From Gammaproteobacteria bacterium (GTDB taxonomy: Bacteria; Pseudomonadota; Gammaproteobacteria; Chromatiales; Chromatiaceae), in contig JAABSM010000010.1 of assembly GCA_011390365.1 (NCBI GenBank), positions 2,714 to 66,713 on the forward strand: a stretch of DNA of 64,000 nt, in the 5' to 3' direction. This document shows positions 14,501 through 17,500 of this stretch, one piece after another. Position 1 is the first letter of the stretch. Every line of letters begins with the position of its first letter. Position numbers: made by a program.

Positions 14501-17500
14501 TTGATGATGGCGACGCCGATCAAGAGCGCGTTGCTTGGGCAGTAGTGGTGTGTTCTGCGCGCTGGCGCGGTGGTTGGTTTTGTCATTGAATTGGCGCGCG
14601 CCGTAACGCACCATCCGAGGCATGAACTGGAGCATGGTGCGTTACGCCCGCGAGGTGTTTCGGTGTATGCGGACTCGACCAAGGTTGGCAGTGGGTTGGG
14701 GGCGGAGGCTCTGTCGGAGAGAGGCTGACGCACCCTGGGGGGCGCTCAATGTCATTAACTTAAGCGCCACGCCAGGTTCCCGCCCTTGATGCGCCTTACT
14801 CCGGGGCAGCCCGGAAATCGCTGGGCTGGCATAGGATGTGCCGAATAACAAAGCCTTGTCGCTCGGTCGACGGCACATCCTATGCAGAACCAAAAACGGT
14901 CGGCGCACCCACGAAATGAGGCGCATCATTCCCGGAGAATGCCATGGTGGCTTAAGTTAATGACATTGGGGGGGGCGCTGCCAGCAACTCCCTGACCCGG
15001 TAGAATGCCGCTATGGAGCGCGCCTCGGTAAAATCCCCCCGCCCCAGCAAGCCCTCCAGATCATCCAGCCGCCAGGGCAGGGTTTCGATCTGCTCCGGCT
15101 CGTCGCCGGGCAGGCGGTCGGGATAGAGGTCCCGGGCCAGCACCACATGGGTGGTATGATAGAGGTAGCCAGGGGCGACGGTGTAGGCGGCGATTTGCTC
15201 CAGCTGGCGGGCGGCGTAGCCGGTCTCTTCCCGGCTTTCACGGTTGGCCGCTTGCAGGGCATCTTCCCCCGCCTCGATATGGCCCTTGGGAAAGCCAAGT
15301 TCGTAGCGCTCCATGCCAGCGGCGTACTCCCGGATCAGCAGCACCTCGTGGGCGGAGATCATGGGTACCACCAGCACCGCGCCGCGTTGGGAGCCGACGA
15401 TGCGCTGGTACTGGCGGGTGGCGCCGTTTTCGAAACGCAGATCCATCTCTTCGATGTTGAAGATGCCGGTGTCGGCGATCTGGCGGCGGTCGGTGATGTC
15501 GGGTTTGCGGGGCATGGCTTCGCTTCGTGCTCGGGCTGTTGATTGTGTTAACCGCGGATTAACGCAGATGCGCGCGGATGGGCTTGGTGCTGGGGAATTG
15601 TACGGTTTTGGCGATATGATGGGTAGTCTGGTGGAGGGGCCATCGAGAGCCTCGCGTTCCGATGGGAGGCGAAAAATCGTGGTTGTAGCAGTCAAGCCAT
15701 TTTACCTTTCGTTGAATAATCTGCGTAAATCGATGTTAATCCGTGGGCCAATAGCAAACCGAAAGATCTATAGGGGCTAGCGATGGCGCAATTGAGTGGT
15801 TGGGGACGTTTCCCCGTTGTCGAAGGAGAGAGCCTTTCGTTCAGTGATCTCGGCCATCTGGGCCGTCTGATCGAGGCGGGGGAGGGTATCCCCTATGGAC
15901 TGGGGAGGAGTTATGGCGATAGCGCGCTGGCGAAGCGTTGTTTCGACTCCCGCCGTTTCGATCGCTTCCTCGCCTTTGACGAGGCTAGCGGGATGCTGTG
16001 CGCCCAGGCCGGCGTGTCCCTGGCGGAGATATTGCGCATCACCATTCCCAGGGGCTGGTTTCTGCCGGTGACGCCGGGTACCGCCTTTGTCACCCTGGGC
16101 GGTGCGGTGGCGAGCGACGTGCATGGCAAGAATCACCACCTGGAGGGCTGCTTCTGCGACCACGTCAGCGAGCTGTCGCTGATGACCGCCAGCGGCGAGA
16201 TCCTGCGTTGCGGTCCAAGCGAGAACACCGCGCTGTTTCGCGCCAGTTGCGGCGGCATGGGACTGACCGGGGTGATCGTGGACGTCACCCTGCGGATGAA
16301 GCCGATCCGCGGCGCCTGGATCGACGAGACCCTGCTGCGTATCGATAATCTCGGGGAACTCTTCGCCCGTTTCGAGGAGCATGCCAAGGCCACCTACTCG
16401 GTGGCCTGGATCGATTGTCTGGCCAAGGGGGATGCCCTGGGGCGTTCGTTACTGATGGTCGGCGAGCATGCCCAGGAGGGGGGGCTCTCGCTGGCCCCGC
16501 AAGGTCGCCTCAAGGTGCCCATGGACGCGCCGGGCTTCGCCCTGAACCACTTCACGGTGGCCGCCTTCAACACCCTCTACTATCAGCGGGTGCGACGCAA
16601 GCTCACCCAGCACCGGGTCCACTACGCCCCCTATTTTTACCCTCTCGACGCGGTAGGCGAGTGGAACCGCCTCTACGGCAAACGGGGCTTCCTGCAATAT
16701 CAGTGCGTCATCCCCAAGGCGGCGGGACTGGAGGGGATGCGCGGCATCCTCGGGGCCATCGCCGACTCCGGCCTTGCTTCGTTTTTGGCGGTACTCAAAG
16801 CCTTCGGCAAGGGCAACGACAACCTGCTCTCCTTCCCCATGGAGGGCTACACCCTGGCCCTGGACTTCGCCATGCACCCGCGCCTGTTGCCGCTGCTCGA
16901 CCGCCTCGACGCCATGGTGCTGGATCACGGCGGGCGTATCTACCTGACCAAGGATGCGCGCATGTCGCCGGAGACCTTTCGCAGGGGCTATCCGAGGCTG
17001 GATGAATTCCTGGAGGTGCGCGCCGCCCACGGCGCGGATCGGCGGTTTCACTCCCTGCAATCCCGGCGCCTGGAGATACCGTGATGGCGCGAACAAGACA
17101 TCACCACAGAGGGCGCGGAGAACACAGGGTAAGGTTGTTGTCGTTTCCCCAGTTGTCTTCTCGTCGGAAGCCTCCGTGCGCCCGGTGTTCTCTGTGGCGT
17201 AATCTTTTTTAAACATGCTCTGGAGCGGTTTTAGATGAAGAAAATCCTCATTATCGGCGCGACCTCGGCGATCGCCGAGGCGACGGCGCGCCTCTACGCC
17301 GAACAGGGTGATCGGCTGCATCTGGTGGCGCGGGATGGCGACAAGCTGGGGGCGATCGCCGCCGACCTGCGGGTGCGCGGGGCCGATCAGGTGAGTCAGT
17401 CCCTGCTTGATGTTACGGATTACGCCCGCCACGAGGCGGTGGTGGATGAGAGCTGGGGCGTGCTGGAGGGGTGCGATCTGGTGCTGATCGCCCATGGCGC

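Follow-up and report, generated by a model that had tools for sequence, protein, structure and literature searches.

A lineage-specific, non-autonomous ~221-bp element with IS4-family ends in a draft genome of the Chromatiaceae

Is a short repeat that occurs four times in one stretch of bacterial DNA a mobile element, and if so, whose transposase moves it? The stretch in question, here called the window, comprises 64,000 nucleotides (positions 2,714 to 66,713 of contig JAABSM010000010.1, assembly GCA_011390365.1) from a gammaproteobacterium of the Chromatiaceae. An earlier note, made from the sequence alone, had described the repeat as a MITE (miniature inverted-repeat transposable element) of ~222 bp with 10-bp target duplications and had left its parent insertion sequence (IS) unnamed. 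The window is part of a 4.26-Mb draft genome in 169 contigs with 62.6% G+C, which is fragmented and looks metagenome-derived. From the analysis described here, the repeat is, with a probability of about 0.85, a lineage-specific, non-autonomous DNA transposon of ~221 bp with IS4-family ends.

A non-coding element with copy-specific target duplications

All four copies were confirmed at the places given in the earlier note, apart from the end of copy 3, which lies at 33387 and not at 33400 (Table 1). The ends read as described (CAATGTCATTAACTTAAGCG). In subfamily A, one of two subfamilies introduced below, 19 bases are perfectly inverted, and 23 of 24 when one indel is allowed. The consensus is 221 bp long in subfamily A and 220 bp in subfamily B. 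The body folds into a single long hairpin, with a minimum free energy of -62 kcal/mol when treated as DNA and -117 kcal/mol when treated as RNA (z = -8.6 and -9.9, respectively), and none of 200 shuffled sequences folded as stably. The element is without coding capacity and non-autonomous, and the window holds no transposase gene, as previously stated. Stops are present in all six frames of the MITE, the longest open stretch being 68 codons, and a scan of copy 1 for promoters and terminators found nothing inside the element.

Target duplications were evaluated for 45 full-length copies in the genome; as control, the comparison was shifted outward by another 10 bp on each of these copies. Flanks matched at 10/10 positions in 12 copies and at 9/10 in nine more (21/45 at 9/10 or better), whereas the offset control reached at most 5/10. 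The flanking repeats are thus not coincidental, and the copy-specific 10-bp duplications found genome-wide agree with the footprint of a 10-bp staggered cut that had been proposed from the window. Three duplications had been noted there. The duplication of copy 2 is perfect and that of copy 1 stands with one extra G, but the pair at copy 4 is not its own, being inherited from a composite described below. Imperfect duplications (8-9 of 10) flank 9 of the 26 full A copies. The targets show a weakly palindromic, G+C-rich preference, about RGnSCGSnCY; in the symmetrised sites G2 and C9 occur in 31/44 and C5/G6 in 29/44. Copy 2 was inserted within a CACRGAGNN-type array. The 10 bases duplicated at copy 2 (AGAGCGCACA) were also duplicated, in the opposite orientation, by a MITE copy on contig C99.

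A BLASTN count with the subfamily consensuses, which the earlier note had proposed, yielded ~132 non-overlapping copies or fragments. These add up to 22,059 bp (0.52% of the genome) and are spread over about 90 contigs; 18 of the copies touch contig ends. Length, terminal inverted repeats, copy-specific duplications, lack of coding sequence and copy number together bear out the identification as a MITE. The family falls into two subfamilies, whose consensuses differ mainly at end positions 11-20. Subfamily A occupies 63 places, of which 36 are at least 200 bp long, with a mean pairwise identity of 94.5% that reaches 99%; subfamily B occupies 69 places with a mean pairwise identity of 86%. Subfamily A is young and subfamily B is older. 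Indeed, several A copies are 98-99% identical and have perfect duplications. The two ends of A are nearly identical, whereas those of B have diverged from each other (CAATGTCATTCAGTTAGCGG... versus CAATGTCATTAAGATAAGCC...). Judged from these end sequences, two matching ends close to the clade consensus might have been better recognized by the transposase, a plausible cause of the recent burst of subfamily A.

A search of 40 relatives with the element, one of them being the sole congeneric genome, did not find the MITE, so every orthologous site there must be empty. Neither the 24-base end nor a conserved 24-base core has an exact match in any other GTDB species representative. The MITE is a new, lineage-specific family of a well-known kind. 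The UvrD protein of the genome is nearest (~70%) to those of Thiodiazotropha-, Thiosymbion- and Sedimenticolaceae-type Gammaproteobacteria, and the host looks like a sulfur-oxidising, symbiont-related gammaproteobacterium.

IS4-family relatives and the source of transposase

Termini and 10-bp duplication now place the parent of the MITE, at family level, in a clade of the IS4 family. The end consensus of the IS4 subgroup is -AATR--------WTW----, with repeats of 10-13 bp, and that of IS231 is CAT-------AA--TAA--- (PMC2266710). The MITE ends fit the former at 7/7 specified positions and the latter at 7/8. The length of the duplication lies within the range of the IS4 family (8-13 bp, about one helical turn; Table 1 of PMC2266710). 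Closer matches were found among individual elements. IS1675 on a Lactococcus plasmid has a length of 1,604 bp, ends CAATGTCATTAAGTTAAGG that agree with the MITE at 17/20 positions, and gggtatactc on both sides. A 1,644-bp IS of the Firmicute Brotomerdimonas (L207) carries a perfect 22-bp repeat that agrees at 19/20, and encodes a transposase of 439 amino acids that belongs to IS4_1 and has the motif YRLRWGIETSYRWEK. From such sequence matches, the MITE ends very probably derive from the IS4-family clade that includes IS1675.

Further relatives are elements of ~2.5 kb with ends CAATG[G/T]CATTC[A/G]CTTAAG and one open reading frame of ~745 codons, in which a DruA/DUF4338 domain is joined to DDE_Tnp_1. 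Clean 10-bp duplications flank multiple copies of these ISs in Methyloprofundus and Nitrospirales chromosomes (metagenome-assembled genomes). The Methyloprofundus IS was observed to duplicate the same 10 bases repeatedly (ggatcgtagg, ctcacagatc), in either orientation (loci L036-L043, L046). This points to insertion into REP-like repeats and resembles the situation of copy 2 and the C99 copy in CACRGAGNN-type arrays.

For the pattern CAATGTCATTNNNTTAAGCG, at least 115 stretches from other species gave a match, a count that proves little alone since ~70 matches are expected by chance. However, its middle triplet is strongly skewed (AAG in 61/123). Many of the matches are elements of 110-360 bp with inverted ends and perfect 10-bp duplications, located in two Thiosymbion genomes, Victivallales, Desulfospira, Veillonellaceae and others. 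The end CAATGTCATT-NNN-TTAAGCG, again with perfect 10-bp duplications, was also seen on unrelated elements of small size (about 120-570 bp) from many phyla (Table 1). Because unrelated small elements share this end and the 10-bp duplication, the IS1675-like clade has spawned MITEs repeatedly, and CAATGTCATT-NNN-TTAAG plus a 10-bp duplication is a reusable mark of small non-autonomous elements in many phyla.

The earlier note had suggested looking for a longer element that shares the terminal repeats. None with the same ends and a 10-bp duplication was found in the assembly, where such a search yielded known MITE copies and nothing else; a related IS that encodes a transposase is present. At the end of contig C30, the IS end CAATGGCATTCGCTTAAGAG is succeeded by a transposase fragment (159 C-terminal residues) that contains the YREK motif YHDRWGVEELYKVSK and matches DDE_Tnp_1 and NCBIfam IS4_1. 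A protein search returned 764 clusters with the DruA/DUF4338 plus DDE_Tnp_1 architecture, one of which, P0008, is identical to the C30 fragment. Contigs with P0008 from six runs yielded the whole, intact-looking IS of 2,487 bp (loci L177-L182). P0008 has 746 amino acids in one open reading frame with an N-terminal DruA/DUF4338 domain. Its Y-(2)-R-(3)-E-(6)-K motif reads YHDRWGVEELYKVSK, and the protein is recognized by PF01609 and NF033592 (171 bits against a cut-off of 115). The left 312 bp of the IS correspond to the end of contig C55 (59556-59867) and the right 562 bp to that of C30 (8020-8581), each with 100% identity. That C55 and C30 are two sides of one IS copy was ruled out, as the flanks do not match. 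In this assembly, the sites to which the flanks from other samples map (C92:31089, C148:2357 and C75:1740) are uninterrupted, so the IS occupies different sites in different samples or cells. Contig C30 also bears a MITE copy of subfamily A. The ends of the co-resident IS agree with those of the MITE at 16/20 and 14/20 positions.

Several other sequences were encountered around this IS. A DDE_Tnp_1 match on contig C140 was rejected as a parent, being a truncated, unrelated transposase beside an integrase-like gene. On C55, 57 bp from the P0008-type IS, lies a second IS (about 57096-59498) in which a DruA-like domain is fused to a Tn5-like transposase (763 amino acids). CTGTCTATTACCCACACTG is found within the 36-bp inverted repeats of this second IS, whose ends show no relation to the MITE. 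The DruA/DUF4338 domain has been read as GNAT-like in one paper. A literature search for DUF4338/DruA with transposase and for the MITE end sequence returned nothing relevant and, within the library covered, no account of the fused clade.

A further set of ends was observed in the assembly. Sequences of 161 bp starting with CAATGTCATTTAGTTAAGCGCAAACC stand at two contig ends (C97:1-161 and C101:35027-35187) and as a truncated remnant on C108 (183-343); they agree with the ends of MITE subfamily A at 18/20 positions. Their first 26 bases also start a ~130-bp MITE with a 9-of-10 duplication (L088:369-501), in an unrelated metagenome contig of low G+C content. On C108, the truncated 161-bp end is followed at about 420-535 by a stray C-terminal GroEL-like fragment (…CMVAEEPKDDAPMPGGGMGDMGGMGGM…), suggesting an IS-associated rearrangement or a chimeric contig.

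By analogy with the studied members of the IS4 family, the MITE probably moves by cut-and-paste. A DDE transposase supplied in trans would bind both terminal inverted repeats (CAATGTCATTAACTTAAGC...) and excise the element, which would then be inserted at a 10-bp staggered cut in a weakly palindromic, G+C-rich target; repair would yield the 10-bp duplication. We infer that the transposase is P0008 or that of a still closer, unassembled element. For the young subfamily A, the co-resident IS4-family transposase with its DruA/DUF4338 domain is a possible but doubtful driver. Several observations weigh against this account. The ends of the co-resident IS match less well than those of the unassembled element. 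BLAST comparison of the MITE with all fetched IS loci, the co-resident IS included, revealed no similarity beyond the ends. The short IS1675-type transposase was not found in the assembly. Furthermore, copy numbers and some junctions are uncertain in a draft of 169 contigs with 18 copies at contig ends. The driver may instead be another IS4-family element, one that the assembly lacks except for the 161-bp ends, a candidate we regard as tentative but serious. The better match of these ends (18/20 versus 16/20 and 14/20) speaks for it, as does their location at two contig ends and in one remnant, the pattern expected of a multi-copy IS. A break at 161 bp also agrees with the relatives, in which some 150-165 bp separate the left end from the start of the transposase gene. 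However, no coding sequence is attached to the 161-bp ends in the sequences examined, 380 genomes of the order contain no match to them, and they could belong to another non-autonomous element; the failure to find the short transposase in the assembly counts against this candidate as well.

An extinct family, in which the copies would be fossils lacking an active transposase and the co-resident IS no more than a remote relative with similar ends, appears unlikely. A mean identity within subfamily A of 94.5%, and not ~100%, would be in line with extinction, as would the 9 of 26 full copies with imperfect duplications. Yet other A copies are 98-99% identical with perfect duplications, and since the insertion sites of the related IS differ between samples, a transposase of the clade is active in the population. 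Taken together with the absence of the MITE from relatives, this variation argues for recent transposon activity. We consider it highly improbable that the repeat is a structured RNA gene family, or a REP/BIME-type palindrome spread by a RAYT-type enzyme or by recombination, despite the very stable hairpin and the position of the window copies between genes. Neither the MITE nor the window matched any Rfam family (Rfam 15, gathering threshold); a known structured RNA had been named in the earlier note as a finding that would speak against a mobile element. The sole sub-threshold match in the window, with 18.5 bits where the cut-off is 60, is due to chance. The copy-specific duplications, the ends held in common with IS4-family insertion sequences and the length of 221 bp, far beyond that of REP units, also contradict such an origin; so does an insertion into a further repeat, of which intact 'empty' versions are present at other places in the genome. 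A non-autonomous element, probably mobilized in trans, is retained as the best explanation. If P0008 does drive subfamily A, ~60 recent copies, whose ends are defined and whose targets are mapped, would provide a natural test set for a widespread, unstudied architecture. One would then ask what the DruA/DUF4338 domain acts upon, the ends or the palindromic, G+C-rich targets.

A nested composite and an altered gene end

The duplication pair of copy 4 (tacacgcctt/tatacgcctt) belongs to a larger repeat that is common to at least 10 other copies. This outer repeat of ~95 bp is an imperfect palindrome, ATCGATGCGGCATCTGTTTGGAGTACAGCCCTGGGGCTGTACGATAGCCCTTCACACGCC-AAGGCGTGTA-CTCCATCCCCGAACCGGGTCGATA. 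Most B copies lie inside it, and it is also found without an insert, for example at C114:14740-14801, C110:22885-22942 and C147:25152-25203. Copy 4 and both arms form one such composite (27709-27959). The composite, ~323 bp long, occurs at least 10 times and always in the same relative orientation. The left duplicate reads AAGGCGTATA and the right one AAGGCGTGTA, with a common G-to-A change on the left; AAGGCGTGTA is also what intact outer repeats show at the point of insertion. Because the composites have this difference between duplicates in common and are fixed in orientation, one old B insertion into the ~95-bp repeat, amplified afterwards as a ~323-bp unit, explains them better than repeated independent hits.

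In most copies TA precedes and follows the outer repeat. Being flanked by TA, the outer repeat may itself be a MITE of another family, possibly a TA-duplicating one that spread the composite. If so, one MITE may be able to travel as a passenger within another. Private duplications were found at several B copies (for example GGCGCGCGCT and AACCGGCACA), so subfamily B also moved alone. At C125:66691-66853, an element within the outer repeat has the B right-end sequence at its terminus and a different internal sequence, suggesting a further MITE variant or a replaced core.

Table 1. Location of MITE copies, target-site duplications and outer-repeat arms in the window, and loci of small elements with similar ends
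Feature	Position	Strand	Remark
MITE copy 1, subfamily A, full length 222 bp	14747-14968	+	99% identity to copies on other contigs
Left target-site duplication, copy 1 (ggggggcgct)	14737-14746	.	10/10 to 14970-14979 once extra G at 14969 is skipped
Right target-site duplication, copy 1 (ggggggcgct)	14970-14979	.	extra G sits in right-hand G run
MITE copy 2, subfamily A, full length 221 bp	33420-33640	+	
Left target-site duplication, copy 2 (tgtgcgctct)	33410-33419	.	10/10 match
Right target-site duplication, copy 2 (tgtgcgctct)	33641-33650	.	
MITE copy 3, older subfamily B, right end short by ~30 bp	33200-33387	+	88% identity, element positions 1-190
MITE copy 4, subfamily B, ~74-bp internal deletion	27743-27889	-	
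Left arm of outer repeat carrying copy 3, ending in inherited duplication aaggcatatg	33130-33199	+	
Right arm of outer repeat at copy 4, including inherited duplication aaggcgtgta (element strand)	27709-27742	-	
Left arm of outer repeat at copy 4, including inherited duplication aaggcgtata (element strand)	27890-27959	-	
Small elements with CAATGTCATT-NNN-TTAAGCG end	loci L186, L239, L201, L210, L242, L243, L189, L282, L299		

The MITE copies of the window are located between convergent genes or at gene ends. A NUDIX gene on the minus strand ends in …AAPPPMSLT* (14952-14979), and its last five codons plus stop (MSLT*) come from the right-end terminal repeat of copy 1. The protein is little changed, since NUDIX homologues stop no more than a few residues away from that position. 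The terminal repeat has TAA in two inward frames and would end most reading frames quickly. In total, the MITE accounts for 0.5% of the genome, interrupts the assembly at no fewer than 18 contig ends and rewrote the end of at least one gene. Annotation and binning of this lineage should for these reasons take it into account. The more unusual points, namely the nested composite and a DruA-fused transposase as possible driver, are side issues, and nothing here will surprise specialists in mobile elements.

Comparison with known systems

REP and BIME palindromes are 20-40 bp long and lack a target duplication, whereas the MITE has 221 bp and 10-bp duplications. Like the Correia elements of Neisseria and the RUP elements of Streptococcus, it is a small repeat that forms a hairpin, lies mostly between genes and has a target duplication on its flanks. 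However, Correia and RUP duplicate TA and are tied to other IS families, while the MITE described here duplicates 10 bp and has IS4-type ends. The outer ~95-bp repeat is closer to the TA-flanked Correia/RUP type.

IS1675 resembles the MITE in its terminal repeat and in a perfect 10-bp target duplication. It differs in size and in encoding its own transposase of ~439 amino acids, and the non-coding MITE shares nothing with it between the ends. The DruA-fused 2.5-kb ISs (that of P0008, those of Methyloprofundus and Nitrospirales, and those of many metagenomes) share the end pattern CAATG[G/T]CATT..CTTAAG and the 10-bp duplication, and their core is NCBIfam IS4_1, as in the IS1675-like transposase. 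The ends of the co-resident member, however, agree with the MITE at only 14-16 of 20 positions. The lack of internal similarity means that the MITE did not arise by simple deletion from a DruA-fused IS.

A search of plasmid records with an IS1675-like transposase returned no Bacillus IS231 among its matches, and the clade of the MITE is therefore a different subgroup from IS231. A parallel nevertheless exists in MIC231, the IS231 cassettes of the Bacillus cereus group, which are non-autonomous, retain only the ends of an IS4-family IS and are moved in trans, with duplications of 10-12 bp. MIC231 cassettes carry passenger genes, whereas the MITE consists of IS4-type ends around a body without any open reading frame.

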